DNA of 64,000 nucleotides from Lama guanicoe (lineage: Eukaryota). Below the pieces are notes generated by a model. That model was given only the letters and a program-made list of their open reading frames with translations, did not search any database and was not told the origin of the DNA. Shown here piece by piece: positions 3,261 through 58,709 of the stretch. Position numbers and translations under genes: made by a program. The stretch lies in assembly GCA_013239625.1 (NCBI GenBank), contig MU053513.1, positions 3,336,927 through 3,400,926 of the forward strand, read 5' to 3'. Position 1 is the stretch's first letter. Each line of letters opens with the position of its first letter.

Positions 3261-4330
3261 TTATTTTAATGTACAATTTGAATAATAGTTAATGATAGCA
3301 AATAACATGTTTTCTTAAAAATCATTGTTGAAAATTATTTTGAAAATAATTAAGCAAAATATATATTTAAAATTAATTAGGACTGTGGCTGTGGCAATTT
3401 TAAACTACTCTGTCAGTCTTAACTACTCTCCTAAAATAACATGGGACCACCAAGAACAATCTCACAACTGCTAATAAACAGATCTCTCAAATTATACATA
3501 GTGTCTGTGAGTATAAAATACATCCCTGAATCACTGTTTTAAAAATTCTAGCTTCATGTTCATTGACTCAACAAACATTTACTTATACCATGTAGCAATA
3601 ATTGTGTTAGGTGCAGTGATTCAAAGAAGGATTAACATACAGTCCTTGCCCTCAGTTGGGGCAAGGGAGAATAAACGTATTATGAGACAGTATACGAACC
3701 TTACAACTGTCAGTATGGATCATTTAAATCAGAAGTCTAGTAATACCTATTTTTCTAATTTTTATTTTATTCTATCCTGTATTTTATTTGTAATTAATTC
3801 TATTTTAATATTAACCTCATTTCCTGGCTTCACACAAGGTGTAGAATCTTGAATCAATAAAGTAACTGTTTTTAAGTATTACAAGTCTTTTTGGCCAAGA
3901 ACCAAGGTGCCACTGCTAAAAACAATATTAAAATTAAACTGCATTTAGATCTTCTGCAGTATTCATAAAGACGATTTTTTGGTTACATTAGGTCCTTCAT
4001 GATTAAATAAAAGAGAATAATACATTCTTATACTTGCAAGTCTTTCCACAGAGAAAAGCTAAAAAAAGAAACATTAAAATTGCATATGATTTCAATTTTA
4101 ATGCTATCCAAATTAATTATATCCATTAATACAAATACTCAATGTGCTATTATCCTATTTATTGGTATTTATAAGATGTAATGTACAATTAGATTTTTGA
4201 TGAACAGTTTAAAGTTTCTGTTAAAACTCAAGGAATTGTTGTATAGAAAACAATTAAAGTCCTTAAAATCAGTTATGATCAGGAAGAATGGAATAATCTG
4301 CTATTTTATTAACAGCTGAATGACAGAGAC

Positions 4331-4395
4331 CTCTTATCTTCCAAGGAACCACAGTAAGCTCTTAATAAAGGTGTGTTACAGTTCTTCAGAGCAAT
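4331..4395 (-). CDS. MSH4: MSH4 exon 10
   Basis: IALKNCNTPLLRAYCGSLEDKR; TAATAG| ... GAG|GTCTCT; 65 nt, phase 2 end fits exon 11. Confidence 0.92.
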
Positions 4396-6528
4396 CTATT
4401 AAAGAATAAAATAAAGATAGTTAAGGATAATAAATTATGGCATTATTCAAATGTAGCACTTTGCATTTGTTTAATACTTTATAGTTTATCAAGTGATTTC
4501 TTGCTTCATCTTCTCCTTTATATACTCACAAAAGAAATTTCAGATATGTGAAGACAGAATATATCTGGCCCATTTTCAAGATAAAGAGCACATGGTTAAT
4601 AAGTGGCATCCACTGCTCTACTGTGACTTATTTTTCTTGTCTTCCAACTAACCATTAACACTAAACTATGTATTAGTAGTAGGTACTTAAACAGCTATCA
4701 TTGTGCATTCAGATTACTCTACACATAATCCCAAAATCTGGGTTAAATATACATTAAGTTTAAAGAATATCTTATATATTTGTAAACAGAGCAACTTCAA
4801 CACTCTTACACGGTAAAAGTAGGGATTTTATTTTGCTTAATGGAAACTATGAATGGGTACTATTTGAATAAACAGAAAAGAGGAGACAACATAGATAACC
4901 TGACATTTTACCTCCTATTTTAGTTTGCTATGAGGTAATGCTAACATTTTAGAAAAATAATATTTATATACCAATAAAAGCTAGAATTCTTAGAAGCATA
5001 AAGAAAAACATTTAAATCATTCATAATTCTACCACTCTTCCAAAGATAAATACTCTAAGTATTATGGTACATTTCCTTTTACTTTTTCAAATCAAAAATT
5101 TTATATTACTGCATGCTCCTTTTCTTTCCTACTTAATTCTACACGACAAGCATCAGGAAGTTCTCATAGTTAAAAAAAAAAATTAGTAAGTCATACTATT
5201 CCACCTGTGGGAAGCAAAGAGTATCTCCCCATAATTATTGGAGTTCTACACTACTTACACTAATAGAATATAAACAATGCTGAAACAACCATCACTGGAC
5301 ATAAATCTTGGTCAACACCTCTTAGCAGTTCTTCTGAACAGATTTCTAGAAATAGTATTACAGCATCAAAACATATATGTTGCAAAACATTCCTGTAAGG
5401 TATGTACAATTTGTACTCCTCCCAGCCATCTATGAAATTGTCTACCTCTTTTGTTCTCTCATTAGCAGTAAGTTGCATCCATTAAGGAAAAAAACTTTGC
5501 TTTTTTAACAGATGAAAACTATGGTTTTTAATTTGCAGATCTTTGACTAAGGATGAAGTTGAATATTTTTAGTACTATTTAATAACCACTGATTTTCTTT
5601 TTTTTTTTTAACATGTTCCATATTTCTACTGGCATTCCAGTATTTTCTTATGAATTACATGAGTTCTATGATGATAGAAATTAACAGTTTGTCTGTTATG
5701 TGTTATAATTTTTTCCGAATTTTCTTTGGCTTTTACTTTGCCTTCTACATACCAGAGTTTGAAATATGTGTTTCATCAAATCTACCAGTTTGGGGGAATA
5801 ATTTATTATACTTTTCTCATTCCAAGAAAGATGACAACACTTTTGAAATCTTGCCAGATTGTGTTCATTATATATATTTATTAGAATGGACTCTATAACA
5901 AAATTCTTCCACATTTTTCATTATTTTTTCTTTTAAAAAATCAGTTCTTTTTATCTTTTAATTGAAAAAAACTTCAACATTTTGAATCATGTAGTATTTA
6001 AAAATAGATGAAAAAAATCACCATTTTTAATCACCAGAGTTACTTCCGGTAAGAGTCATTATTAAATGCCAAATTCAATTGGTGAAAGTTTGATGAGGAA
6101 TAGTTACACAGTCTTAAGGTATCTCCCCACAGATTACATACATATAACTTTACAGTGAAGTAAATGATTAAAGTTAAGATCACAAGAAGGGAATAATGAC
6201 ATGTGCCTCCTGATGTTCTATACTGAGAAGGATACAACATTGCTTATTTGGTACTACTGCCAAACACGTATAAGCTGAATTTAATCATGGGAAAACAATC
6301 ACACAAATGGAGGAATATCCTATTAAAAAACTGACCCTTACTCTTCAAGATGTCAACATTATGAAAGAGAAAGAAAGGCTGAGAACTTTTCAGTTTAAAG
6401 AAGTATAAAAAAATTACATTAAATATAATGCATGGTCCTGAATTGGACCCTGCATCAGGAAAAAGAATTCCATAAAGAACATTATTAGGACAATTGGAAA
6501 AGTGTGAATATGAGCTATACGTAATATA

Positions 6529-35194: not shown

Positions 35195-35335
<141 letters not shown>

Positions 35336-35565
35336 CTATTAAAAAAAAATGATTTGTAGAGAATTACAGAATGAAAACTTCTAAAACTCTGCTTGGTATA
35401 ACAATGTTAATAATGGAGCCCACTGTATTTACTTCCTTTACTTCAAGGTATGCTTAATGTTTCCTGAAATAAAGATACGTTCAAATTGTGGGTTTTAAAC
35501 ACAGGACCTGGTCTACACTCTCATTTCTTGGCAATAAGTAACCAAAATTTCTGTAATTTGTTTTA

Positions 35566-35748
<183 letters not shown>

Positions 35749-36422
35749 CTAGGAGGAAAAAGCCAATAAATGTTGCCACAATTTTATTTACTAATCAAAA
35801 TACTAGGAGGGGGAGAGGGGAAATCGCAATATACCAACAATGAGCGTTTGAAACACTGAAATCCAGAAATACAACTACTTAGGATTAAAGATGATCACTG
35901 GAAAAGACCAAACACTTCATTCCACAGAAATCCAGGTTAAATGTTTCAGTTTCAGTACTCAGTGACAACCATCCATCTACCTAATTTCTATCTGCAATGA
36001 ATATGCCCATATCAGGCCCTTATCCAAGAGGCTGGCAGTAAGGCTCATGAAACCTATGGTGATATCTTGCTCCATTGCCCTCGGTAGAGCATTTTCAACA
36101 AGCACCCCTCAAAATATGTAACTTAAGAAATACAGAAGACCCCACCTTAGACTAAGTAAGACTCTTCATTTCCACAAGATCCCTGGGTGATTCAAAGCCA
36201 TGTTAAAAACTGTCCTAGATTCTGAAGTGCAGGTTCCTAGCAATCCCCACATCCATCCATTTTCTTCTAATTCTTGAAAGTTGCCCAGGTTTTTCATTAG
36301 ATCTTAATAAATCACTTGTGGTTATTTCCCTACCAATTAACTTACTCAGAAATATCAAGTAAGCAAAATTAAAAATACAATGACGCAGATAAAAGCATCA
36401 ACATGCCCTATTTTATTTCAGG

Positions 36423-36665
36423 TCAGGGGCTCAGCAGCCTACAGCCCTTCAGTCAAATCTAGACTTGATTTTTAAACAGTTTTGTGACAGAAAAACAGTA
36501 CGAAGTTTGTATGTGTGTACAGTAACTTTAATGGAGCATAACCATGCCCATTTGTTTAATGTCTATGTCAGCATTTGCTCTTCAGGACAGTTGTGTAGCT
36601 GCAACAAGACCATATGTCCTACAAAGCTAAAATATTTACCATCTGGTCTTTACAGACCCAACTGT
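36423..36665. mobile_element. MER58-like hAT MITE in RABGGTB intron 7 (another at about 51903-52120 in ACADM intron 8)
   Basis: CAGGGGCTCAGCAGCCTACAGCCC ... AAAGCTAAAATATTTACCATCTGGTCTTTACAGA. Confidence 0.65.
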
Positions 36666-37290
36666 GAGAGCAAGTGTGAGAGAAAAGTTGGGATTTTCCT
36701 TGAAGTAATAAAATTAAGATTTTAAGTGAAGATGTACGCAATTAAAAAAAAATCTCTTTGATTTGGCTAATTCTGTACTTTAGTGGACATGGATTTATCT
36801 GTACATGATGCAAGTGACCTTTGATTCACAGATATAAAGCTTTAATGCATAACCGATCCCTTAGTATAAGTCCAGAACTAAAAGGTTTGTAGAAATAGCT
36901 TCATTTCAAAATGCCTGAAAAATACAAGACCTTCAGAAGGATGGGGAGAAAGACCCTTTAAGAATTCATACTATAAATACAAATATTTTAAAGCCACGAG
37001 TATTTGCTGTTTTTATATTCTCCTCTAGATAACTCCAGAGTCTAAAATTTCAGGGTAAAAAAGACCAAGAGACATAGATCTGTCATTAAGGAGAATCAAA
37101 CGGTACCATGCAATCTTTCCATGAGTGTCCTTTAAAGGAACACCAGAGTTAATAAGCATTTCAACTCCAGTTGTTTTACTTTTGCCAAGAGAATCTTTTA
37201 GGAGGTAGGCTGAAAAATTGCAATGGAGGAAGGTAAAGAGCTCGATATCAATTAACAGTATCAAAAAAATCTAAGACAAAGTGGTGCTCA

Positions 37291-37452
<162 letters not shown>

Positions 37453-37950
37453 CTAAAATTACAGACATAAAGTACATGTGTATAATAGTTTTTCGATAGT
37501 AACACAGTGATAAAAACTACTTAGATTGTCAAAGTTCTATTTTATGTCTAAAAGCTTGCTGACAGTGAACACTAAGAATTGTAAATGTGTAAACACCACA
37601 TAATTATTTGAATAAATCCCAACATACTATTACTAGGATCCAACTCTGCAATGAAATACCATTGTCAAAATTTCTTCATGGCTAGAAGCAAACCTTGACA
37701 ATTATGTATGCAACCAAACAGGTGTCTGGGATAGGTAGGGACAATAGTTTTCACATTTGCTTAGTTAAAAACTAATGGAAAATCAAAATGCATTTTTGCT
37801 AATTACAAAACTGTTTGCCTGGGTCACAGGGTTTCACCAACAGGAGACTATACAAAGCAAACAACTGTAAAATTGCCTTCCTCAGTAAGCAACACTTAAG
37901 TAACATTCCTTCTAACATTAACTTCAATTAAAATTAACTTTATAAATTAC

Positions 37951-38061
37951 CTGCCCAGCATGAGATTCAGAACCTGGCCTGCAACCAAATCCACCATCAA
38001 AGTTCATACACGATAAAACAAATTCAATTGCCTTTTCCACATTAATAGCATCCAGCTTCCC
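37951..38061 (-). CDS. RABGGTB: RABGGTB exon 6
   Basis: [44 protein letters not shown]| ... CAG|GTAATT; 111 nt. Confidence 0.97.
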
Positions 38062-38144
38062 CTGTAAACAGAATAAAACATGCCTATTAAATTCCAGAAT
38101 GATCACGTATGCTCAATCATTCCAATACGATATTTCAAACTTAC

Positions 38145-38197
38145 CAACAAGGCCAAAGTTGCTACCGCACAAAAAGAGAATCTTGTATCAATTTCTC
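38145..38197 (-). CDS. RABGGTB: RABGGTB exon 5
   Basis: GEIDTRFSFCAVATLALL; TTTTAG| ... TTG|GTAAGT; 53 nt; followed by an 83-nt intron. Confidence 0.96.
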
Positions 38198-39038
38198 CTA
38201 AAAATAAAGGGATCACACCAAAACATTACTTGTTATCAGAGGCTTCTGATCATATTATACAGTACAATTAAAAGACAACCTGTACAACTACCACAGTTAA
38301 ATTTCTAAGACTTAACATGTACTTTTAGGTCACCAGGAGAAAAGCTAAATCAAATCTTAAGGGTCATCACTTTACTTCTAAGTAAACTAAGAGCTAGAAA
38401 AATGCTGTCAAAAATATAGCGAATAATCTTAGGCTGCTTACAGAGTGCCCAAAAAGGGAAAGTAACAAAAACCAAAGGACCAGCCAGTCAATTTCTAAGA
38501 ATGACAATACACTTACCCTATTACATATAGATTTTCACATCCCATGAAGCAGCTGGTCTCTCCGGCCTGCACTGTATTCAGCCCTAAAGCAGAGATATCT
38601 ACGTTTATCACTACATTAACACTCTTCCTTCCCTCCCTCCACTCAAATATTCAGTAAGTTTGTAAAGTTTTTTTAAAAAATATTTTCCCCCTTGCATGTA
38701 GTTTAAAAACTTTACAAAGCCACCAAATATTGGGGGAAAATTTTCACCTACCTTATCTTTTAGACTGGCCCTCTCTGTGCCAGTACTCCTGTATGCTGAC
38801 ATAACTAGCACAGTGCATGCTGGAACTTCCAGCAGACCGTTAACTCCAGTTAGACCAGCTGCTTAGTGGGACCTGAAAAGACGAAAAACTTAAAAATTCT
38901 CCTTACAAATTATTAGCAAAGCCCCCAAAATTCATTGTACTTTAAAATCTTCAAAAAAGCTTATTACTATAATAAACACCAAAACAGGACATTTAAATAT
39001 TGGTATTTTTTGGGTGTCATGAATTAAAGTGAAATTAC

Positions 39039-39144
39039 CCCAAATATCTCCAGCAAAAGAACCATCTTCTTTCTGTAGACTTTGAACATATTCCACAACT
39101 TTATTTACATCAATGACATTAATACTATCATACAGAGTAAGAAT
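39039..39144 (-). CDS. RABGGTB: RABGGTB exon 4
   Basis: [41 protein letters not shown]| ... GGG|GTAATT; 106 nt. Confidence 0.97.
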
Positions 39145-39477
39145 CTGTAACAAAAACAAACCATGGTAAGTACCTCTTCACACTGCTAAGTTGTTCTAAT
39201 GATATTCAACTACCTGCTGTCAAGCAAGCATGTCCATGTCTATGCATATTGTGAACTTTTCTCAAACATGCATACTATCCATCCTATACTACGCAACAGA
39301 ACTACAGGTATTACCAACAAACACAAACCTTTAATCACAAAGCACTGTTTTCTTACGTATAAACTGTGACTCAGCCTCCAAGATTCACATACTTAGACTT
39401 AAGCTCTTTTTTGTGGATCCTCACTTACATTAAAATTCCACTTAGTGATTTTCAAATATAAACATTTTACCATCCAA

Positions 39478-39547
39478 GGTCTCAGGGTAATTTCAGGATT
39501 TTCATCAGCTTTGGATTCAGCTAATACATGCCATCACATCATTGACC
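39478..39547 (-). ncRNA. SNORD45B: Box C/D snoRNA U45B (RABGGTB intron 3)
   Basis: GGTCAATGATG...GGCATGTATTAG-CTGA...TGATGA...AATTACC-CTGAGACC; C/D'/C'/D boxes, terminal stem CAAGGTC/GACCTTG, guide complementary to 18S rRNA CUAAUACAUGCC. Confidence 0.92.
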
Positions 39548-39669
39548 TTGTAGAAGAGACTTCACTTGAAAAGATGTAGGCGACCTTTTAACATAGATAC
39601 TGACCTTTATCAGCTTCAATTTCTCCCCTCAGGTAAGAGAATACACTACACCAAGATGGCCCAATTTTA

Positions 39670-39897
<228 letters not shown>

Positions 39898-40637
39898 TTA
39901 ATGTGCAGGTTTGAATTGATGCCAAGTTAAAGAGACTGAACACACGAAGTTAAACGGCCATATTCTTACTATTTCACTTGATCCTAACACCATTAGTATT
40001 ACGTTTAAATTTGTGGCTCTAAAATGGCAGGGCGGGGATGGGGGGTGCACTACCTAAGCATATATTAAACTCATCTGTGATATAACTAAGGCTTTAATCT
40101 CTCCAAAAGAGCCAACCAAAACATTTTAAAGCATAACTACTTAACCAAATTGGCTACAGTATGAAAAATAAAATAGCTTAACAAAGGTTAATAAAGGAGA
40201 CATAAAAAGTGGTATGAAGGCCATTAAATTTTGCATCACTAATCCATTATATCTTAAAAAGTTTTAAATTGGGTGGGAAGACATAATAATTTGCTGTGAA
40301 TCCAAATTCAGGGTTTCAAAAATTGGCAGTTGAGCACTAGATAAAAAGGCAGGGGGGAAAAAAAAATCAAGCCCTAACCATTTAGTCATCCAAGGAAAAA
40401 AATAAACACAGCCCTAACAACATCACAGCCACAAAGTTATGGGAATCTAACACTTAATTCAAGAACTCATCAACACTACGTGTTTTCCAACACGGTAAAC
40501 AATTCAGCTCTTTGGATACTACAGGTGAAAACATTTATTTCCACTTAAGTTCATTAATTTCTTCTACAATTGTCCCAGAGAGGAAAATTGGGGCAACTAT
40601 TCTTCAAAGTTTCAAACTTAAGGTAAAACTTTTTCAA

Positions 40638-40719
40638 GGCCTCAGCGTAATTCTAGAGCTTCAAGTGATACTACACATCACAGTAAATTCAGGTAATACA
40701 TGCCAACACATCATTGACC
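40638..40719 (-). ncRNA. SNORD45A: Box C/D snoRNA U45A (RABGGTB intron 2)
   Basis: GGTCAATGATGTGTTGGCATGTATTAC-CTGA...GTGATG...AGCTCTAGAATTACG-CTGAGGCC; two 18S guides; extended stem TTTCAAGG/CCTTGAAA. Confidence 0.93.
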
Positions 40720-40981
40720 TTGAAAGCACTACCCGAACAACAAACACAAAACACAGAAATATATTCCACACCTCAAAATCCTTACAAACCTGGACAATGT
40801 CCAGGAAACTACTTTGTCTGCCAAAGCCTCTAATTAAGTATTGGTAAGAGCCATAGTTAATTCTGAAGGCTCCTCAAACATATATATCCAAGGGTACATT
40901 CACTTTATTCACGTCAAGGACAACTTCAGTCCTTGTCGTGCAAGAGTGATATACCATTTTTAAGAAACATGGACCTGCTTA

Positions 40982-41149
<168 letters not shown>

Positions 41150-41343
41150 TCACAACAAAAAAGTTATTTCATAAATGTTTATCGTTTAATGTTTGGCCCC
41201 AGAGCATATATTCAAACACACGTCTGAACTTTACTTTGATTTCATCTTGCCATTAAAAAAACCTTCCATTTAAAAATTGCCTAGTCTCTGACCAAAAAGA
41301 AACTTAGGCACTAAGGCCCTCATAAAGATTCAGGTATTTTTCA

Positions 41344-41420
41344 GGTCTCAGAGTAATTCTAGAGCTAAAGTAGTAATAATCAACTTTAGATTCAGAATAC
41401 ATGCCAGCTCATCATCGACC
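41344..41420 (-). ncRNA. SNORD45C: Box C/D snoRNA U45C (RABGGTB intron 1)
   Basis: GGTCGATGATGAGCTGGCATGTATT-CTGAATCTAAAGTTGATTATTACTACTTTAGCTCTAGAATTACT-CTGAGACC; C/D boxes, GGTC/GACC stem, two 18S guides. Confidence 0.93.
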
Positions 41421-41929
41421 CAAAAATTTATTACCTGCATCTGTCGCTGCTTATCTTTCACTTAAAGAGCTAAGTAAAATAAACACTGAATATCAAAGTT
41501 TGCCAATTCAGGACAACTTACGATTTACATGTGGCAGAAAACAAGCTTAAGTATAATGAAAATTAGCAATCCCGTAATTTGCAGTTAAATTCTTTAATAA
41601 AGTTTTATTAATCTTAGAAACTCAAATTTCCAAGCATCTTCTACGCATCCCTCAAAAAAGTTAATCAAACAAGCAGTCCCTTTAGCGTCATCTTCAGCTT
41701 TTGTCTTAGCTCCTGGATTTGCAACAAGCCCCCACGTGATGAGGACGCTGCTCTAGTTCTCCACATTTCTTAACTAGATCTTTGTAATTGTGACTACATT
41801 TTATTCACTTTAAGTAGGTCAAGATGATTACCATAACATTAAGTAGTGAATTTCCTTCATAGCCCATTAAAATTTACTAGGTCTTCAATGAGACCATTTC
41901 AGTGACTTTGAGCCATCAAATATATATAT

Positions 41930-42520
41930 GTACGGAACGAAAACAAAGTAGAGAGAGAAGGGAAAAAGAACTACAAACCGGCCCAGCTTTTTTGAGGGTT
42001 TAAGAAATGGGGTCTTTGAATCCTAAAGCCCGCCCGATAGGAGGAAGTCTGGATAAAATTAGAAGCAGCCAACTGCGCCAAGAGGTCTGCAGAAAACGCT
42101 GAGTAATACCCTCTCGCGGAGCCCTCAAAAAAACCTTCCAAGGCGCGTGACTTAACCCAACTATTCTCCAATACCTGGTTAAACAACCCACTGGTAACTG
42201 AGCTGCTTAATATTACCCTACCCCGTCTCCTCCCGAGACATCTGGACAGCAACTCAAAACACGTCCACACTCACCATCTCCGAAAGCGAAAAGAGAACTT
42301 GGCTTCTTCCTGGGTAGAGTTAGGCGGCACGCGCCTGCGCAGAGGCATCCCTCAGGTCCCCTCCACCCCCACGACATAGCTGACCACTCTGCTGCCTGAA
42401 GGAAGGAGCAGTTCCATGGCTGCCCTAGGACCCCATGGATTCCTCATAGCTGTCCTCGCTGCCTGCGCCCAAAGTTTTCGGCGCCAGTTTTCTGCTGCCG
42501 TAATCTCGGTTTGTTCGAAA
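41930..42520 (-). promoter_or_regulatory. RABGGTB: RABGGTB CpG-island promoter with TCT/TOP-like start and NRF1-like site
   Basis: CpG-rich; TTCTCTTTTC at 42297-42288 just upstream of the ATG; TGCGCAGGCGCG at 42341-42330. Confidence 0.8.
42275..42277 (-). CDS. RABGGTB: RABGGTB (Rab geranylgeranyltransferase beta subunit) exon 1: start codon only
   Basis: GGAG ATG|GTGAGT consensus donor inside the CpG island; phase 0 join to exon 2 gives MGTPQKD. Confidence 0.9.
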
Positions 42521-46285: not shown

Positions 46286-47606
46286 CTGCCAAAAAAAAAA
46301 AGTAGGTTAAATATCTTCACTACATAAATACTTTGATTTACTCAGTATTTTGGACAGCACTCTAAGCTCCTATTGCAACACTAAACTGACTCAAACCATA
46401 TAGAGTCTGTAGTCTAAAGTGATTCTGAAACTTGATTTTCTGAAAATAGAAAATTATACTCTAAAGATTAGTTAAATTATTACAAAAACTCCTTTAGCAA
46501 AATTTTGAAGGACAGTCTTAAAGCATCAAATACAAGGACATTAACATTTCAAACAGTTTGGTAAATCTAAAGTTTTACCGTTTCTAAAATATTTATCCAA
46601 CTTTTTTGAACTGCTTTTAGCTAGTTGTCACCTTTAGTCATTTTCTATTCTTACTTTCAAACCTGATTTTTTTCTTTCTGCCTAAGGAACAGAGTTGCTA
46701 AAGAGAACAGAGTTGCAAATGCTGGAAGGATTTGGTTTTGTTCACTTAGGTATTCCTAATAGCCACCCCTCATTGCTAGTTGAAACTTGTAACCCAAGCA
46801 TTTGTTAGTTCCGATGGCAGAGAAAAGTTAAAAAGCAGTCATCACAGGCTCCAGGGGAGGGCGAGCATTACCAGATGAATCAGTAACTTTGGATAAGGAA
46901 CAAATTCTGACCCTTAGTTCTTTCAGGTCTAAACTCAAGGGTTGCACTATCTGAATGTCTTTCTCTAACAGTTTATGATTCTACCTCTAGATTTCAAATG
47001 ACTTTTTTCTATATTTGTCAAATAATTTGCTAGGGGTAGAGGGAAGCTATGGAAAAGATATTGAGAAGTTTGGGTTATAATTACTTAAGTTACATGTGGG
47101 CATGGGCACTTATATCTTATTTACTAAATTACTCCAATCTCTAGGTTTTTCTAACCACCAACTTAACTTAGAAGACAGAGTCATCTAGATCATTTTCTAG
47201 AACTTCATCCTCCTCTCTTCCTCTCCTTGGTTTTTTAACTCCCACATATGGTTTCAAGAGTTGTCAGGTAAGATTCAAAATAAAGTAACTAATTTTAAAT
47301 GATATGCATACTTTTAGGAGACCAAAGGATGGGTTACAATTAGCTAGGATGTTAAGAATCAAAGAAGCCTGACCAGACATACTGCACATTTCTGTGCCAT
47401 TTATTTTGCTAGCCTGTTCTAAGACATAAACTTCAAGGTCACATTTTTCTTTGCCTTAATTAGTTCTAAAATCTAGGCTCAGAGGCACCTATGATAAAGA
47501 TTTATTATTACTAGTGCCATAAAATCTCCAAATGATCAGAAATCTACCATAACATTTATGAATATTATGATCCCTAAAAATACACAAAAATCATTTTTAA
47601 CATTAC

Positions 47607-47855
47607 CTGATAGATCTTGGCATCTCTCATTAGTTTTTCTACAGGATATTCTGTATTAAATCCATTGCCTCCGAAAATCTGCACAGCATCAGTAGCTACC
47701 TGATTTGCAATATCTCCAGCAAATGCCTTTGCAATAGAGGCATAATAGGTATTTCGGCGACCACAATCAATCTCCCAAGCGGCTCTCTGGCAACTCAGTC
47801 TAGCTAGTTCAACTTTCATTGCCATTTCAGCCAGCAAAAATGATATTCCTTGGTG
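47607..47855 (-). CDS. ACADM: ACADM exon 11
   Basis: [83 protein letters not shown]; acyl-CoA dehydrogenase C-terminal signature; 249 nt. Confidence 0.98.
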
Positions 47856-48351
47856 CTAGAATTAAAAAGAAAAAAAGTTTAAAGACATCTTAATTTAAAG
47901 ATGACTAATTTAAAAGTTTTTTTCCTGGAACTTTTTTTTAGCTTCAAAAACTAATTTTAGACTTGTTACAGTCTACTTCCTCCAGTGGTAACATATTACA
48001 AATCCATAGTATAATGATCAAAGACAGGACATTAATGTTGGTAAAATATTATCAACTAATCTACACACTGTATTCAAATTTGGCCAAGTTTTCCACTAAT
48101 GTCTTTTTTCTGTTGAAAGATCCCATCCAAGATTCCGACTGAATTTAATTGTTATTTCTTCCTAGTCTATCTCAGGCTGCTGGGATTCCTCAGTCTTTCC
48201 TTCTCTTTCAAGACCACAGTACACTCTTGAAGAATATTGGTTATTTTTGGTTATTGGTTATTTTTTGTAGAATGTCCCTCAATTTGGGTTTGTCTGATGT
48301 TTTCACAGGACTGAAATGAAGTTATGCATTTTTGGCAAAAATACCATAAGA

Positions 48352-48497
48352 GGGGAGGGTGTAGCTCAAGTGGTTGAGTGCATGCTCAGCATACACAAGG
48401 TCCTGGGTTCAATCCCCAGTATCTCCTCTAAAAATAAGAAATAATAATAATAATAAACCTAATTACCTCCCCCCACCAAAAAAAAATTTAAAAAAAT
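48352..48497 (+). mobile_element. Camelid vic-1-type tRNA-derived SINE
   Basis: GGGGAGGGTGTAGCTCAAGTGG (A box) ... GGTTCAATCCCC (B box) ... AAACCTAATTACCTCCCCCC plus A tail; imperfect TSD AAAAATACCAT/AAAAATTACAT. Confidence 0.88.
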
Positions 48498-48821
48498 TAC
48501 ATGGATCCTTCTAAGTATCTCCTGGGACTTTTAAAAGAAAATTGCCATAGATAGTGAAAAATAATGTAGCACTCACTATATAAGGTGCTGATGGGAAAGT
48601 GAGTGTCCTGACAAGGACAAATAAAAGAAGTTTCTTATCCACTAGAGGTTCATAATCAAATAGGAGACTTAGGGCAAATACTTTCAAAAAGAGACAGTAA
48701 GTGTTCTATGAGTTATATGGCCAAGATATGCTATAGGATGGAAATATGTTCATCATACATTGATATGTGAAAACTTCAAATATGTCATATGGTTCCAGCT
48801 TTGGAAAAATATATTGATGAC

Positions 48822-50620
48822 CCCCAAAGAGCAAAATACACCAGAAATTAACATTGTAACTGACTATGCTTCAATTAAAAAAAAATAAAATAAATTAAAA
48901 AATAAAGAGCACATGGAATATTCTCCAGGATAGACCACATGTTAGCCACAAAACAAGTCTCAATACATGATAAAAGGTTTAAAATCATACCAAACATCTA
49001 CTCTAACCACAACAATATAAGACTATAAACCATCTACAAAAACAACCCTGCAAAAAACACAAACACATGGAATCTAAACAACATGCTACCAAAAAACCAA
49101 TGGATCACTGAATAAATCAAAGAGGAAATCAAAAACTACCTGGAGACAAATGAAAATGGAAATACAACATTCCAAAACCTACGAGCAAAAGTGGAAGTTT
49201 ATAGCAATACAGGCTTTCCGCAAGAAACTAGAAAAATCTCAAGTGAACAATTAACCTTACACCTAAAAGAGCTAGAAAAAGAAGAATAATCTCAAAGTTA
49301 ATCCCAAAGAACAAAAGAAATAATAAAGATCAGCGCAGAAATAAATGAAATCAAGACTAAAACAAATAAGAAATCAATGAAACTAAGAGCTGGTTCTTTG
49401 AAAATATAAATAAAATTGATAAACCTTTAGCCAAACTCTTCACGAAAAAAAGAGAGGTCCTAAATAAATAAAATTAGAAATGAAAGAGGACAAGTTGTAA
49501 TCAATATCACAGGAATACAAAATATCATGAGATTACTACAAAATTTATATGCTAATAAACTGGACAACCCAGAAGAAATGGATAAATTCCTAGAGACATA
49601 ACTTAAGAAGACTAAATAAGAAAGAAACAGAAATCTAAGCAGACCAATTAATAGTAATGAAATTGATTCAGTAACAAAAAAAAACTCTTAACAAACAAAA
49701 GTCTAGGACCAGATAGCTTCACAGGTAAATTCTACCAAACATAAAAAAAAAAAAAAAAAAAAACCAAAAGCCTTAACACCTATCCTTCTGAAACCATTCC
49801 AAAAAAGTTGAAAATGCTTCTAAACTCATTTTCCAAAGACAGCATTACCCTGATATCAAAACCAGACCACCACCACCACCCCCCAAAAAATAAAGTAAAA
49901 ATAAATAAAAATTACAGGCCAATATCCCTGATGAATATAGATACAAAAATCTTCAACAAAATATTAGCAAACCAAATTCAGTAGTACATTAAAAAGATGA
50001 TACATCATGATCAAGTGTGATTTATCCCAGGGATGCAAGAATGTTCATTATTCACAAGTCAAATCAATGTGATACACATTAATAAAATGAAGGATAAAAA
50101 CCATATAATCATTTCAACAGAGGCAGAAAAAGCTTTTGACAAAATCCAACATCCATTTATGATAAAAACTGTCAACAAAGTGGGTATAGAGAAAACATAC
50201 CTCAACATAGTAAAGGACCAACCCACAGTTAACATCACACTCAATGGTGAAAAGCTGAAAACATTTCCTCTAAAATCAGGGACAAGGAGATGTTGCCCAC
50301 TCCCGCCACTTTTATTCAACATAAAATTGGAAGTCCTAGCGATCAGACAAGTAAAAGAGATAAAAGGCATCCAAATTGTAAAGGAAGAAGCAAAACTGTC
50401 ACTGTCTGTAGATAACATGGTCTAGAAAACTCTATAGACTCCACAAAAAACACTATTAGCAATCTGTAGCATTTTTATACACTAATAATGATCTATTAGA
50501 AAGATACATTAAGAAAACACTCCCATTCACAATTGCATCGAAGAGAAAAAACTGCCTAGGAATAAATGTAACCAAGGAAGTGAAAGACCTGTACTCTGAA
50601 AACTGTAAGACACTGATGAC
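48822..50620 (+). mobile_element. LINE-1 ORF2 fragment (endonuclease end to reverse transcriptase) in ACADM intron 10
   Basis: ORF 50033-50425: [26 protein letters not shown]...[24 protein letters not shown] (RT motifs); several frameshifts. Confidence 0.92.
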
Positions 50621-50978
50621 ATAACAAATAATGCTAATAAAATGCTAACAAAAATTTGTCCTCAAACAAATTGTTAAATTTTGCTGAGCTGCAGTTTCCT
50701 GATCTTCAATGGAGATCGCAGTACTACCAAAACAAGGGTAGTACTAGAGGAATTAGATGATGTATTTAAAACGTGTAGCACAGTGTCAGTACAGCACAGG
50801 CACTCAGATAGTATCTGCTCTTTGTCCTCTTAATTAACATAATTCCCAAAGTGGACAACAGTTAATGGCAAAGTCTAAAATCTATTCTTAAAGCCCACCC
50901 TGATTGTTCACATTATCTTCTTGCTACCAAAGCAGAAAGATAGCAGTTTGTACTTAAAAGATAACTTTCAAATATTTA

Positions 50979-51128
<150 letters not shown>

Positions 51129-51650
51129 CTAGAAATTTAACATTTTACAAAGCAAAACTTGATGTTGTCTTTAAAACACACAGTATAATGGTACACAAAG
51201 AGAAGCCGACCTATACCTTAAGGCAACAAAGTGGGTGGGAGGGGGAGATCACAAGCGTTTATATTTATATTATTTATGAATTAAAGGTTAATGGAAGGCA
51301 TTTTTAAAGCTCAGAATCATAGCCTAGAGACAAGTCATTCCTTCTGTTTAACAAGGGAAAGCTTCTTATGGAAAATATTCCTAATATGTGAGGAAGGAGG
51401 AAATGAGTACATATTCCCCAGGAATGATTAAATGTGAGCTGCTTCTTTGTAAATCCAACAACTACAGTATTATTATATTTGCTAAAATAATTTCTGTAAT
51501 AGGTAACGAGAGAGTTGAAGAATTCTAAAACAAAAAACAATCTCTCCACCCTTAATAAAAGAAGCAGATATTAAAAAGGAAATACACACCAAGCACACAA
51601 TGTAAAAACCACTCAATGTAATAAACAAAAAAATCCTACAAAGATTATCA

Positions 51651-51806
<156 letters not shown>

Positions 51807-52394
51807 CTAATAAGGAAAAAGATATATATTAAGGAACATTTTTTTGAGCTAGGATACATTTTTGCTTTAACCACTGTTTTATGACTTTCTGCAATTGTCT
51901 TAAACAGGGGTAGACAAAACAGGCCTGCAATGCCTGTTTTGTAGAGATAGATTTATTGGAATGCAGTCACACCTATTCATTACATATCACCTAATGGTTA
52001 CTTTCTTGCTACAATGGCAGAATTGAGTAGCTGTAACAGAGACCATGTAGCCCTCAAAATCTAAAGTATTTACAAAATATTCCAGATCTTTACCAAAAAC
52101 TGTTCATCAACTCCTAGTCTAAAACAGTGTTTCACAAACTTTGAAGCCAACACTAGCCTAAAATCTACATGTACATATTACCTACAAAGACAAATTTCAT
52201 TATATGTTTGAAGATTATCCTTTTTACCATAGTAAATGTGGTAAAATGTAATGTCATTAAAAACATTTAGCAAACAGAATCTGCTTTGAAACATTTAATT
52301 TTAGCTTAACTAACAGAGCTAGCAAAGGAATGTACTGGGTAATAGTTGTATCTGTTTTCCCGGAACTCTTTCTTAGAATTAGGGTTAACAGGAT

Positions 52395-53090
52395 AGAATC
52401 TGCATATAGAAAAATTCGCCCACTTTACAAACACATTTCTGACAAATGTATGTGTGTCTAATCAACATCACAATCAAGATACTTCAGCACCCCAAAAAGT
52501 TCCTTTGTACCACTTTTAGTCAATTCCCTTACTCTACTCCCAACCCCAAGCAACTGATCTGATTTCTGTCCATGAGTTTTTCCTTTTCCAGAATGTCATA
52601 TAAGTGGAATAAGGTCAGCCTGCTATGCCTGACTTCTCACTCTGCATAGTGCTTCATTCATGTTGCTGCTGATCAGTAATTCATTTCTTTTACTGCTGAG
52701 TTGTGTTCCACTATATGGATGTACCATAAATCCTATCCACAAGTAGATGGCTCCCCCCACCCCCAAGTTTTCAGTAATTATAAATAAAGTTGCTATAAAC
52801 ATAGGTCCTTATATTCATTTCTCTTGAGTGCTGGGTATGTGGTAAGTGCACACACAAGAAATTGCCAAGGTAACTATATTCCCTCAAATTCTTGTTTTGA
52901 AAATTTTCAAACCAATAGAAGAGCTCCCAGATAAGTAAAACAAGTATCTCTATACCCTTTACCTAGATTCACCAATTGTCGACATTTTGGCACATTTGCT
53001 TTATTTCTGTGGGGTTTTGTGTGTGTGTGTGTATAACTATTAGTATTATTTGCTGAATTATTTGAGAAGTTGCAGATATCATGACCCTTC
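52395..53090 (-). mobile_element. Old LINE-1 (L1MB-ME type) 3' fragments
   Basis: CCTTTTCCAGAATGTCATATAAGTGGAAT, ATAAATAAAGTTGCTATAAACAT, CCTAGATTCACCAATTGTCGACATTTTG. Confidence 0.7.
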
Positions 53091-53859
53091 TTAGGGAAAA
53101 AAAAAGTAATCTCATTTTTAATATGCAGTGGGGTCAATGGGAACATAGAGCTATAAACAAATTCTTTAATATCAATAGTCTGCTTCAAGGCCTGAAGAAA
53201 TAGTGACAATAATACATAGTTTGAACAAGAGAGAAACTAACATCTCTTTGTCTTTTAAAGTTGATAAACTCTAATACCTTAGACCTTTACTCGGATGTTT
53301 ACAAAAACATTGTTTTACTCTATCCTGTTTCCCAGACTCATCCAAACACCAGAACATTTAAGACCAAAATGCTTCCTAGACTCATCTCAAGCCATATAGT
53401 TTCTAAAACACAAAAGTTTTGAAAAACATCAAATTTCACAAACTTGAAATTCAATATATTTCAAAAAAGACTTAAAGAGATTTAACATATACTTATCTGT
53501 TTCTCTCACTAGAAAGTAAATTCCCCAAGGGCAGAGATTTTTGTCTGTTTTGATTCATACAGTAATCTCAATATCTAGAATAGTGCCTAGCAATGAACTC
53601 AATAGATATTTATTGAATTAGAGATTTTTCTAAAGTGAAAAAATGGGAAAAAAGAAAGTAAGACTAAAATTAGCAAGCTAAAATCAGAAATGGGTTTACT
53701 ACTGAAAAAAGTATAATCTGTCAGGACCTTTACACTTTCTAGAGATGGCCATAAATTTGGCCCTGAGTTTTCTAGCAACCATCCCTAAAAGAGAAACATG
53801 AATGAAACATAAATAAAAACAAACCAATTGCTTAGAAGCACAACCACTTTTAGTACTTA

Positions 53860-55029
53860 TGAAACTAAGCAGAAATCTGTGTCACCCCCTCCTCCTGCCA
53901 AGTACTAAGGCCCTCTACGTCCCCCTGCCTCTTGTTTGTAGAAAAGCTAAAATCTCCCAGTCCTCCCTGAGTCACAAAAGAACAGGCTCCATTACTTATT
54001 AGGACAAGAGAGTCATAGACTCACTGTCTGTGCACAATCCTGAATTGTTTTACAGGTACTGTAACTGCCACCAGAGGGAAAAAGCTAATTGTATGATGAC
54101 TAGACTGCAGCCATGACATAAGCTGCTCCCTCTTGAGCAGCACTGAATCTATGGCCAGCACAATTCCAAGAACTGGCGTCAAGAGAATGGAATTAACACT
54201 ATCATAATAGCTATTCATAACACTGCTATACAGCTCATAATAATCTGTATCTCTGTGAACATCAAAATAACTGCAGCTTGTTCTGCCCATATATGTAAGT
54301 GGGCAACTAAAACTGTCAGCAGAAATGCTTCAAATCCATGTCGGTATCTTTCACCTTAAGACCTCGATGCCCTTTCTCAGCATGAAGCAGTTAAAGAAGA
54401 CAGAATTTTGTTCCTAATCCCACAGAAATATAATGGTATCTGATGGGGGTGGAGGGGAGATTTATAAACAACTCTTTGCAAGAAACCACCCTCAGCAGGA
54501 AACTCCTTTTGTCTTGCCACTTTAGCAAAGCATATTGTAAGTAACTTTTAACTCACATGCTCCCATGCTCTACTCATCTCCAGCCCTAGCACACCCTTCA
54601 AATCGTTTGACTACACAATACCTCGCCTAACTACTGGTTCTGTCCATAGGTCAAAGAAGTAGAAATGAAGAATAAGTAATTAATAGATGAAGAGATCTCT
54701 TCCCTAGCTCTCCCTTCAGCAATCTCACAAACTGTGTGAACGAAATAGCAACTGAAGAAAGATCACAAGGAGTCTACAAGCCTGCATGCAGTGGGAGATG
54801 ACGATGAACTTGATCCCCCATCTCAATGATTAACTGAGATCACTTCCCCTTTTCCCTTTCAAATTCTCATGGCTGAGCAGAATATTGGGAGTTGGTCTTT
54901 GGGGGACATAAGTCTACCTTCTCGCCACATTGCCAGCATTCTGGTTAAAAGCAACTTTCCTTTCTACCAACAACTGCCTCTCAGTATTGATTTTTGAGAA
55001 GCAAGCATCCAGACCTGAGTTCAGTAACA
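53860..55029 (+). mobile_element. ERV1-class LTR element (MER34/MER39-like 3' end) with 4-bp TSD
   Basis: CTTA|TGAAACTAAGCAG ... CCAGACCTGAGTTCAGTAACA|CTTA: TG...CA termini and exact CTTA duplication. Confidence 0.8.
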
Positions 55030-56365
55030 CTTATATTTTGTTATACACAACAATCTCATTATAGTTTTATTTGTAAAGTGCAGTCTACCTTTAATAGCTA
55101 CTCTTAAAAGAAAACATAGCATAATATAGTGTCAGAAACTGCACTGGGCAAGTTCCTAAGACACCTGAGCATTGATCTCAACTCTGCCTCTTAAGTATGT
55201 AACCATGAGTAAATCACTTCACTTGGATCTCAGTTTTAATGTTCAGTAAAGAGACTATAAATAATATGTAAAGTATCTCCCACTTTTAATAGTCTACAAC
55301 CTTAAACCTACGCCTCCTACATACTTTAGCAACATGCTTCCATTTTAAAGAGGCTTGGGTACATGGATTTTAATAAAACAGAATTACACAAATACATATG
55401 CCTAGTTTAGAAGTTTGCACAACTTGTTCAACTCAAACTACCCTTTCCTGTTCAGGTTATGCAACCCTTAGCCTAATATCTATTCAGACAATCTGAACAT
55501 TTACCCATCTAGGAGGAAGAAAGTATGCTCATGTAACTCTTAATTAAGTTCCATACTCCCTCCTTTGCCTGATAGACATCGACATCATTTGGTCATGAAC
55601 AGGTTTTCTTTTCTACAAATTCATTTTGAAAACAACAGTTTTACAGTTGAAACTTGTGACTCCTCTTTCTTTTCTCAGAGTTACAATCTTAAACCTTGTT
55701 TCCGCAGCTCTAACTTGGACTACTTTAATGACTTCATTTCTTTTTTGATTTGTTAAATTTTAATTTCTTTTCTCTTTAGTCTACTTTAAATGTTACTGCT
55801 AAATTATCTCCATGCATTCAGATTACTAACCCTTTCAAATATGTTAAATTACCTGTTCTTGTTTAAATAAAATTTTTCTTGCTTTCCCCCATTCACGGCT
55901 CTTTGCCATTTCCACACTTTCTCAGGAACAGATTTTTCTCTGAGTGTTGTATGACCTTGGGTAATCAATTTATGTTACATTGTTTTAATCCATAAAGTGT
56001 GCATAATGCCACTTATCCTACCTGAAAGGTTCCTGTGAGGAAGGAAAAAGAGTGGGAAAGTCTTTTGAAATGTCTAAAACTCTATTACTGGGCAGGCCAT
56101 ACAAATCATATTTTGATTTCCGCTTCATTATCCCTCACAGCTGTTACTGGCATTCTCCGTAGACCGGCACCACAAATAGCCACTCATTCAAGTAATTACT
56201 TGAAACGACTATTCTCAACTTAAAATCTTCAGCAAGAACTATTTCACCTGGTAACATCAACTATGGCTTAATTTTTAATGTAACTTAATACAAACAACAT
56301 ATTTTCAGTAAAGGAAACAGATCGTAATTTTGAAATTTTTAGTTAAAATAATATTGGAGGCCTTA

Positions 56366-56533
<168 letters not shown>

Positions 56534-58538
56534 CTATCAGCAGATAACGCATGGTGACTGCACCTCAGTTACCCTGCCAACAATCCCAATGATTATTACC
56601 CCCATTTTACAGATGAGGAAATGAAGAATTAGGGAGGTTTAAAAGCTTGCTCAAGTTACATACAATGTAGCAGAGCTAGTATTTCAGCCCAGGCTTGCTT
56701 CATAACTAACATGGTATTTAATTTTCTTTAGCAGTTTGAGCTGTAATTAAAAAATCCTTGTATCAAGATAACGTAAAATTAAAAGAAAGTATGTGTGTGT
56801 TGGAACTGACACTCTTCCTTTGCCAAGACTGGTTAAAGTATTTAAGGGACAAACAAGCTCTCTGGAAAAGGAAGGTAAATGGGGCGGCTGCCTGTGAAAA
56901 GAAATGAGATACTAACTCCTATTCTGACTACTGTCCTCTCTATGCAACAAAATCAGTGTTTCTGTTAGAGCTGAATTATTATGAATTTCAGCTGGGTTTT
57001 CTCTCCAGAAGAATTTTTCCCAGAAAGGTTTAAAAACAAAATATGAGGAAAAAGGCAAAACATCCAAATATTCATGTAGCCCATGTTCTAAAATAGCCTG
57101 ATACAGGAAATTTTTTTTAATTCCTTAATTTTCTATGCTCAAAACTAATAAATTATCATTTACTCTACAGTTTTACTTAATAATAGCTTAAAAATAGTAG
57201 AAATTGTTTTCTAGTATCATATGTTACCTAATTAGTCTTACTACATGAAGAGCTGAACTTAATGAGTTCTTAAAATTATGAAAGCTTCTAATTGCATTGT
57301 TGGATTTCTCTCAACCTGTGACATTTTAATTGTTTCTTCAGGTTTTGTTTATTATTTTCTGACATTATGATTACTTAATGACACAGTGCTTTACCAGACA
57401 CTCATAAAGTGTTCGATAGATACGTTTAAAATAAACAACTTGCTGGTACGCTCACTCCCAGGAATAATGCTCTACTTGCCAGAAAACAGCACTGAAGAGC
57501 ATACTTATATTTTAAATCAGAGGTTCTATTTTTATACTTACAGTGATGAGTGAATAAATACATTATTTCCCATGACAACTTAACACACATTGGACAGAAC
57601 TGTTGCTGAAATGCTCATCCTTATGTTGAGCTGTATTATTCTATATTTCTCTCACTTTCACCCATTATTTTTAAACTGGCTTTCTGAAGCAAACACTATG
57701 AGCCTACTCGCCTCTGTGTGTGACGTTATTTCAAAAATTTCAAACTTCTTCCAACATAACGAAACCGAATTCCTTTACTCTTCATAGGACCTGTTTTCTG
57801 GGCTCATCCTAATGCAGGACATGTATTTGCTTCTGAACTTATTCCATTTTGTCAATGCATGTCTTAAAATGTGTTGCCCAGAACCATTTTTCCCTGTTAG
57901 TTTGATACTATACTCCTATTACTGCAGCAAAAAATCACATTAGCTCCTTAAAGGCAAATACATCACACTGTTGATTCCTATTGAACCTCTCTTCATCTTT
58001 TTCCCACAAATAATGCTATCAAATGTTTTTCCTCAACATTTTATATTTAAGTGCGTTTATGACTCTTTGTTGAACTTCATGTCATTATTTTTGGACCTCT
58101 TAGATTTTACTCAACTAAAATTATGTCCTTTCTAAAAGGTAGTGTATATTGCTCAGAATGAGAGAAATGTGCTATACCACTGGCTTCCTTTTTCCTTGGA
58201 GTCTTAGGGAAATGGTTCCAAGGAGGTCCTGGTATGGAGAGTGGGAGTGGTAAGCCCAGCAGAGGGAGCTCTAGCTTTCCTAATCAGATTCAGCCAGAGT
58301 AGGTAGGTGTTTTTGTTTAATTTTATTTCACAAATTAAACTTTTGAGGCAATTTAAAGAAATAGTTCAGGACTTAAAAATAGTTGTTGAAAATCACTGAA
58401 CTACTTACAATCTTTTATGGACCTTCCAGTTCCATGGATAAAACTTAACTTAATTGTGGTGGTTTAATAATATAGGAAAGAAGAGAAGGGAAATTCTAAA
58501 TATAAAGTAATTAAGAAGCAGTATACAGAGATGTTTTA

Positions 58539-58709
<171 letters not shown>

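Follow-up and report, generated by a model that had tools for sequence, protein, structure and literature searches.

RABGGTB locus and its SNORD45 introns

The window, meaning the whole stretch of 64,000 nucleotides analyzed here, carries ACADM (47601-58688), RABGGTB (35195-42277), and MSH4 (736-22991) in tandem order on the minus strand, with the identity of the 3 genes taken from Pfam content and from the names of fused database models. Several database models (P0015, P0016, P0018, and P0036) fuse these genes with one another, probably as prediction artefacts or through read-through. All features described below lie on the minus strand. The normal form of RABGGTB has 9 exons, with the start codon at the end of exon 1 (42275-42277), and encodes 331 aa, the same length as PDB chain 1DCE_B; its intron 5 read-through peptide is identical to the peptide of a Camelus dromedarius model. 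An Rfam scan of the whole window identified 3 copies of SNORD45 (RF00279), located in intron 1 (41342-41420, 76.5 bits), intron 2 (40636-40719, 73.3 bits), and intron 3 (39476-39547, 86.2 bits), and no other family, which agrees with the initial annotation in placing 3 snoRNA introns upstream of the segment that it had singled out. Exon 3 (39682-39879, 198 nt) sits between the SNORD45-bearing introns 2 and 3, and SRSF7-dependent skipping of RABGGTB exon 3 appears in a CRISPore-seq preprint (10.1101/2025.11.25.690515); the match to the exon described here assumes the same numbering. From the reading of the sequence, exon 4 (39039-39144, 106 nt) ends in phase 1 and exon 5 occupies 38145-38197.

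Cassette exon 4a and candidate cassette 4b in intron 4

Intron 4 contains a stop-bearing cassette exon of 121 nt (4a, 38752-38872), located 166 nt past exon 4 and 554 nt ahead of exon 5, which was recognized by its splice sites, by protein records, and by a match to a mouse acceptor. The acceptor reads TTTTCAG/GTCCC and the donor GATAAG/GTAGGT, so that the AG and GT expected of a poison exon are both present, and the coordinates and strong sites given for this segment in the initial annotation were reproduced. A motif scan alone placed a branch-point-like CTAAT at 38912-38916, with its A at -41 from the 4a acceptor. Joining exon 4 to 4a gives a 145-aa frame that ends in DIWGPTKQLV, followed by a premature TAA (38850-38852) in the frame of exon 4. 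This stop, previously put at about 100 nt before the exon's own junction, lies 98 nt ahead of the 4a 3' junction and 538 nt ahead of the last junction, with 5 exons following, and thus well beyond the 50-55 nt before the last junction that a poison exon has to exceed. An alternative acceptor 11 nt inside the exon is known from the cat isoform P0010.

The segment had been described as free of any recognizable repeat, and 4a and the arm regions described below each gave a single match in their own genome in searches that skip common words; at this sensitivity the exon is single-copy, and an origin of 4a as a repeat or retrocopy was rejected. A small palindrome stressed in the initial annotation (38818-38834), which forms a stem of 7 bp with a 3-nt loop as RNA, is present in 4a. 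Its strength was equaled in only 0.56% of 5,000 shuffles of 4a, but also in 15 of 528 window tiles, and we rejected it as a signal, its value as evidence being weak when taken alone.

A second candidate cassette exon, 4b (38517-38583, 67 nt, frame-shifting), was identified from carnivore isoform models, among which the dingo model starts 14 nt earlier. The join of exon 4, 4a, 4b, and exon 5 is present in the dingo model XP_048967738.1 and the cat model GAB5575191.1. The donor reads AGG/GTAAGT, and the acceptor failed the pyrimidine filter of our splice-site scan. The translation of 4b is identical to that of dingo in 23 of 23 residues and to that of cat in 18 of 19, whereas a control peptide from a dingo intron read-through agreed in 16 of 31 (Fisher p = 4e-5, calculated with this one control and with local alignments). 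Together with the duplex arm that it contains (arm B, below), 4b was found in 2 carnivores only, the dingo and the cat (2 matches among 12 candidates), and in no third species. In all 8 combinations of 4a, 4b, and the alternative acceptors, a stop precedes the last junction by 404-619 nt, whereas the cat model GAB5575191.1 stays in frame with both cassettes.

Exon 4a in other mammals

We identified the junction from exon 4 into GPTKQLV in 15 of 99 fetched proteins, a non-random set in which many records are fragments that stop short of exon 4. Twelve of the 15 end at this peptide, as had been anticipated by the suggestion that the exon might be annotated in other species as isoforms ending in GPTKQLV, and one each goes on with LH, YLE, or LLKL. 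Six of the records are named and come from 5 species (a red deer subspecies, reindeer twice, pilot whale, sifaka, and dingo), and the other 9 are unnamed Logan, ENA, or JGI products on contigs of 0.9-3.6 kb; exons 3, 4, and 4a in one open frame on so short a contig point to a spliced RNA or a retrocopy. Gene-model prediction may account for the named records, and retrocopies for some of the unnamed ones. One unnamed product (P0037) is identical up to the junction to PDB chains 6J6X_B and 6O60_B, which are human, and 4 of the 15 proteins carry the VVAYVQ form found in rodent-named records. The pilot whale record (P0045, "beta-like," 142 aa) is diverged, has the cassette peptide at its end, and may be a retrocopy of an mRNA that included the exon. 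Truncated RABGGTB isoforms with the GPTKQLV end are annotated as KAF4009747.1, UniRef100_A0A2K6FPI9, and CAI9166391.1, and the human transcript ENST00000370826 probably encodes the 145-aa form. Exon 4a is therefore already recorded in databases, and its detection in the initial annotation is a modest finding on its own.

A mouse Rabggtb exon is listed among depolarization-regulated cassette exons by Lee et al. 2007 (PMC1790950), where exons were chosen for having multiple ESTs for both forms and were assayed by RT-PCR in differentiated P19 cells; this exon was selected because the intron upstream of it carries a CaRRE motif, to which protein binds. The upstream 50-mer in the table of that paper and the 4a acceptor share their last 11 nt, and this 11-mer occurs once in the 64-kb window. 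From this acceptor match, the regulated mouse exon is very likely the ortholog of 4a. Taking the protein records and the mouse exon together, 4a is almost certainly a real cassette exon in mammals. The records of inclusion in spliced RNA all come from other mammals (15 of 99 proteins; mouse ESTs and RT-PCR); among 24 sequencing runs, the 14 that are RNA or guessed to be RNA shared 0.39-0.48 of the words of 37900-39900, a share that is no evidence of inclusion in this species.

Peptides were used as a proxy for DNA in assessing conservation. The 4a peptide agreed in 33 of 42 residues, compared with 16 of 31 for a single dingo intron read-through control peptide (p = 0.023), and the body of 4a alone agreed in 26 of 35 residues, which is not clearly above that same single control (p = 0.075). 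Metagenomes were scanned twice: a scan for mammalian intron 4 DNA gave 589 pattern matches and no confirmed one, and a second scan kept 80 of 127 loci, among which only one (L016) had the vertebrate exon layout together with SNORD45. This non-mammalian vertebrate locus, with bird-like peptides, has an intron 4 of 272 nt (4264-4535) in which no match to 4a, 4b, or the duplex arms was found, and it hosts SNORD45 despite having no recognizable 4a or 4b. Judging from this one locus, the cassette seems to be a mammalian feature. In a pheasant model (P0061), about 14 additional residues follow exon 4 and exon 5 is then read out of frame. Birds may own a separate nonsense isoform at this position.

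A predicted long-range duplex over the 4a acceptor

An inverted-repeat search identified a 28-nt repeat that pairs the 4a acceptor with candidate exon 4b. Arm A (38852-38879) comprises the last 7 nt of the acceptor and the first 21 nt of 4a, and also spans the alternative acceptor 11 nt inside the exon; arm B (38532-38559) lies inside 4b. The arms are 292 nt apart and 25 of 28 positions pair (24 Watson-Crick and 1 G-U), with a duplex energy of -41.4 kcal/mol. Paired against the downstream 400 nt, the 4a acceptor window reached -43.3 kcal/mol, and none of 1,000 shuffled targets was as strong. Only 1 of 3,628 tiles on both strands paired as strongly as the 4a acceptor, and this tile is the same duplex seen from the other strand; 7 other RABGGTB acceptors (exons 5 and 7 left out) gave -12.7 to -26.3 kcal/mol. 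This strong long-range duplex over the acceptor was missed in the initial annotation, as was 4b, and the two together are the new part of the present analysis. We did not find the duplex in print in the literature searched, and it may be listed in genome-wide catalogues of complementary regions.

Folding from 4 start points gave a core helix with P = 0.99 in all 12 folds that end at 38520-38420, that is, 12-112 nt past arm B, and P = 0.00-0.59 in all 12 folds with the 3' end at 38360 or beyond. In the longer folds, a competing fold of short helices is better by 1 kcal/mol (-242.3 vs -241.3), and capping the pair span at 400 nt gave core helix values of 0.00-0.49 in 4 longer folds. The 4a acceptor is about 0.7 paired even in folds that stop before arm B, so the model has no clean open state. 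A stable complementary pair around the exon, as expected of a structure-controlled exon, is present at -41.4 kcal/mol and depends on context in long folds. The 421 nt that enclose the duplex had a folding z of -5.45 (0 of 100 shuffles), for a region picked after the repeat was seen, and most of intron 4, unselected, had a z of -2.5 (0 of 30).

Arm conservation that ends where the pairing ends is suggested by peptide proxies, which agree with it at both 3' ends, with arm B represented by dingo and cat only. Agreement falls just past the 3' end of arm A, where GPTKQLV is followed by a stop, L, or Y, and just past the 3' end of arm B, where CEN(L) is followed by 3 different tails. The GPTKQLV residues are encoded by arm A bases, P0062 keeps these bases in a second reading frame, and the position of the stop after GPTKQLV varies (stop, LH-stop, YLE-stop, and read-through in dingo). 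Bases kept in 2 frames together with a variable stop fit a constraint on the RNA and not on the peptide.

Other structures were also identified in intron 4. An AT-rich hairpin (38646-38731) lies between the cassettes, within the loop of the duplex, and begins 20 nt past the 4a donor; its 14-bp perfect arm is found in 1 of 380 tiles, and its z ranges from -1.8 to -2.3. At E <= 5, Rfam gave 8 matches over 38300-39030, all far below the gathering score and rejected, of which 4 were miRNA-family matches on the AT-rich hairpin and 1 was on its other strand. A weaker inverted repeat (24 nt, 75%) joins 38552-38575 in 4b with 38810-38833 in the palindrome region of 4a; it overlaps arm B by 8 nt and might either lengthen the main duplex or act as its competitor.

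Fate of the 4a isoform and the SNORD45 question

NMD is very probably the fate of the 4a isoform, as expected from the 50-nt rule and in keeping with published gene and transcript tables that are not mapped to 4a. Table S4 of PMC4233243 lists the human RABGGTB transcript ENST00000461653 as a stringent NMD substrate and ENST00000461653, ENST00000370826, and ENST00000462042 as relaxed NMD substrates; these tables name transcripts and not exon 4a. At the gene level, Table S2 of PMC5238794 gives significant values for RABGGTB for SMG6 (4e-5) and meta_SMGs (1e-23), and values that are not significant for UPF1 (FDR 0.70) and meta_meta (0.24). A catalogue of unproductive splicing (PMC10123112) had no RABGGTB entry in its one supplementary file.

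The exon had been proposed to act as a switch between the supply of rRNA guides and Rab prenylation capacity, with inclusion releasing the snoRNAs while destroying the mRNA. This proposal is not supported, because introns 1-3 are removed with or without 4a; inclusion can lower the mRNA and does not itself raise the snoRNAs. The position of 4a downstream of the snoRNA introns is no special evidence. The snoRNAs are fully intronic in both the productive and the nonsense isoforms, as in snoRNA hosts uncoupled by NMD, and PMC4233243 includes RABGGTB as a multi-snoRNA host (3 snoRNAs) with NMD-substrate transcripts. Masking of the exon by a snoRNA guide was rejected, since the pairing of the 3 SNORD45 copies with intron 4 was matched by 21-25 of 40 shuffles. 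In PMC10324135, the sole RABGGTB row concerns SNORD45A and its own intron.

Comparison with known systems

In its sequence features, 4a is a poison exon. The mouse Rabggtb exon in PMC1790950 belongs to the same gene and has the identical last 11 acceptor nt; the sections of that paper considered here neither treat it as a poison exon nor discuss structure. The annotated GPTKQLV isoforms use the same junction, and the models from dingo and cat include 4b as well; these are annotation only. In the literature searched, which holds few subscription papers, 4a was nowhere described as a poison exon and 4b was not described at all. Ultraconserved poison exons of the SRSF type are almost perfectly identical among mammals over some 200 nt. 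RABGGTB differs from these in that 4a has undergone substitutions and changes of frame in the dingo and the cat and has no match in the intron 4 of L016.

The closest likeness is to BRD2 exon 3b and BRD3 exon 5b (PMC10789245), which are likewise poison exons with long-range complementary regions, of -29.1 and -34.3 kcal/mol, compared with -41.4 kcal/mol in RABGGTB, although the methods may differ. In BRD2 and BRD3, the introns on either side of the exon carry one arm each and the exon is looped out, a feature that RABGGTB lacks: its acceptor itself serves as the 5' arm, and candidate cassette 4b holds the 3' arm. Opening of the duplex raises poison-exon inclusion in BRD2 and BRD3 (PMC10789245). 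From the geometry of its arms, we infer that RABGGTB would respond to slow transcription in the opposite way to BRD2 and BRD3, with more inclusion. RABGGTB is likely a poison exon gene of the BRD2/BRD3 kind, in which RNA structure would gate the acceptor through a different geometry. It is also listed among NMD-sensitive snoRNA hosts (PMC4233243 and PMC8176728), and the parts of these papers that we cite show no demand-driven switch for RABGGTB.

Proposed mechanism and alternatives

Our preferred reading, held with a fair degree of confidence, is that 4a is a stop-bearing RABGGTB cassette, likely to trigger NMD, with an acceptor predicted to be masked by the 25-pair duplex with 4b. At about the same strength, we favor a role of the duplex in tuning 4a inclusion. 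Where duplex formation comes first, it would hide both 4a acceptors together with the 4b body, and the cassettes would be skipped and the full-length mRNA for Rab-GGTase beta produced. If recognition of the 4a acceptor precedes the transcription of arm B, which follows after about 340 nt, 4a, 4b, or both would be included and the mRNA degraded; opening of the duplex would likewise lead to inclusion of one or both cassettes, with a premature stop followed by decay. Transcription reaches arm B earlier than the rival partner in the competing fold, which makes a kinetic trap plausible. The element would act as a valve on RABGGTB mRNA that leaves the release of SNORD45 from introns 1-3 unchanged; as this release is equal in both outcomes, the reading is of a valve on the mRNA and not of a switch between 2 products. 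More tentatively, and perhaps a little short of an even chance, the tandem poison cassettes may silence each other by base pairing, with the body of 4b clamping both 4a acceptors as a timer of about 340 nt.

These results have to be weighed against control by proteins, in which 4a would be an ordinary conserved poison exon governed by RNA-binding proteins. The inverted repeat would then be incidental, or left over from a local duplication long ago, and 4b would be kept for its splicing signals. The loss of the duplex to other folds in most longer RNAs and the choice of the mouse exon for its upstream protein-binding CaRRE motif (PMC1790950) both point that way. Against it, the duplex sits exactly over both 4a acceptors and no other tile of 3,628 equals it in strength, with arm B inside the best-conserved non-coding stretch seen and neither arm region having other genomic copies at search sensitivity, and we consider this reading rather unlikely. 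We regard as improbable, and more so than protein control, that 4a serves SNORD45 output, with inclusion set by the need for rRNA guides. The NMD lists of PMC4233243 do include RABGGTB as a host of several snoRNAs, and human SNORD45C and SNORD45A correlate negatively with their host across tissues (r = -0.47 and -0.36; 2 of 3 rows, PMC8176728), but the adjusted p values of these correlations are 0.077 and 0.20. RABGGTB is also a dual-initiation gene, which is a rival cause for a snoRNA-host correlation, and the correlation in protein-coding hosts is apparently not set by NMD alone (PMC8176728). Demand for the guides is also at odds with the one non-mammalian locus that hosts SNORD45 without a recognizable 4a or 4b, with SNORD45 pairing to intron 4 that is no better than in shuffles, and with neuronal depolarization being the sole regulation found in print in the sources consulted.

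The remaining reading, that 4a yields a stable truncated protein of 145 aa or serves as an alternative last exon outside NMD, or that it is splicing noise in this species, is very unlikely. The 145-aa form is annotated as a protein in several databases, with the same 7 residues recurring, while the variable stop and the second frame kept in P0062 point to a constraint on RNA; the product would lack residues 140-331, which presumably hold the zinc ligands.

Significance for Rab prenylation

The RABGGTB subunit prenylates Rab GTPases and is also part of GGTase-III. The duplex would provide a concrete mechanism for setting the level of this Rab-prenylating enzyme subunit, and it could explain the activity-dependent splicing of mouse Rabggtb. 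If the proposed arrangement is true, its exon-to-exon, acceptor-masking geometry would join the few validated structure-controlled poison exons, and the clamp would be a timer, sensitive to transcription speed or to helicases, on the shared catalytic beta subunit of Rab geranylgeranyl transferase. Oligos against arm A or 4a should then raise RABGGTB and those against arm B should lower it, which would make the element a dial for Rab prenylation that antisense reagents can turn without affecting SNORD45.
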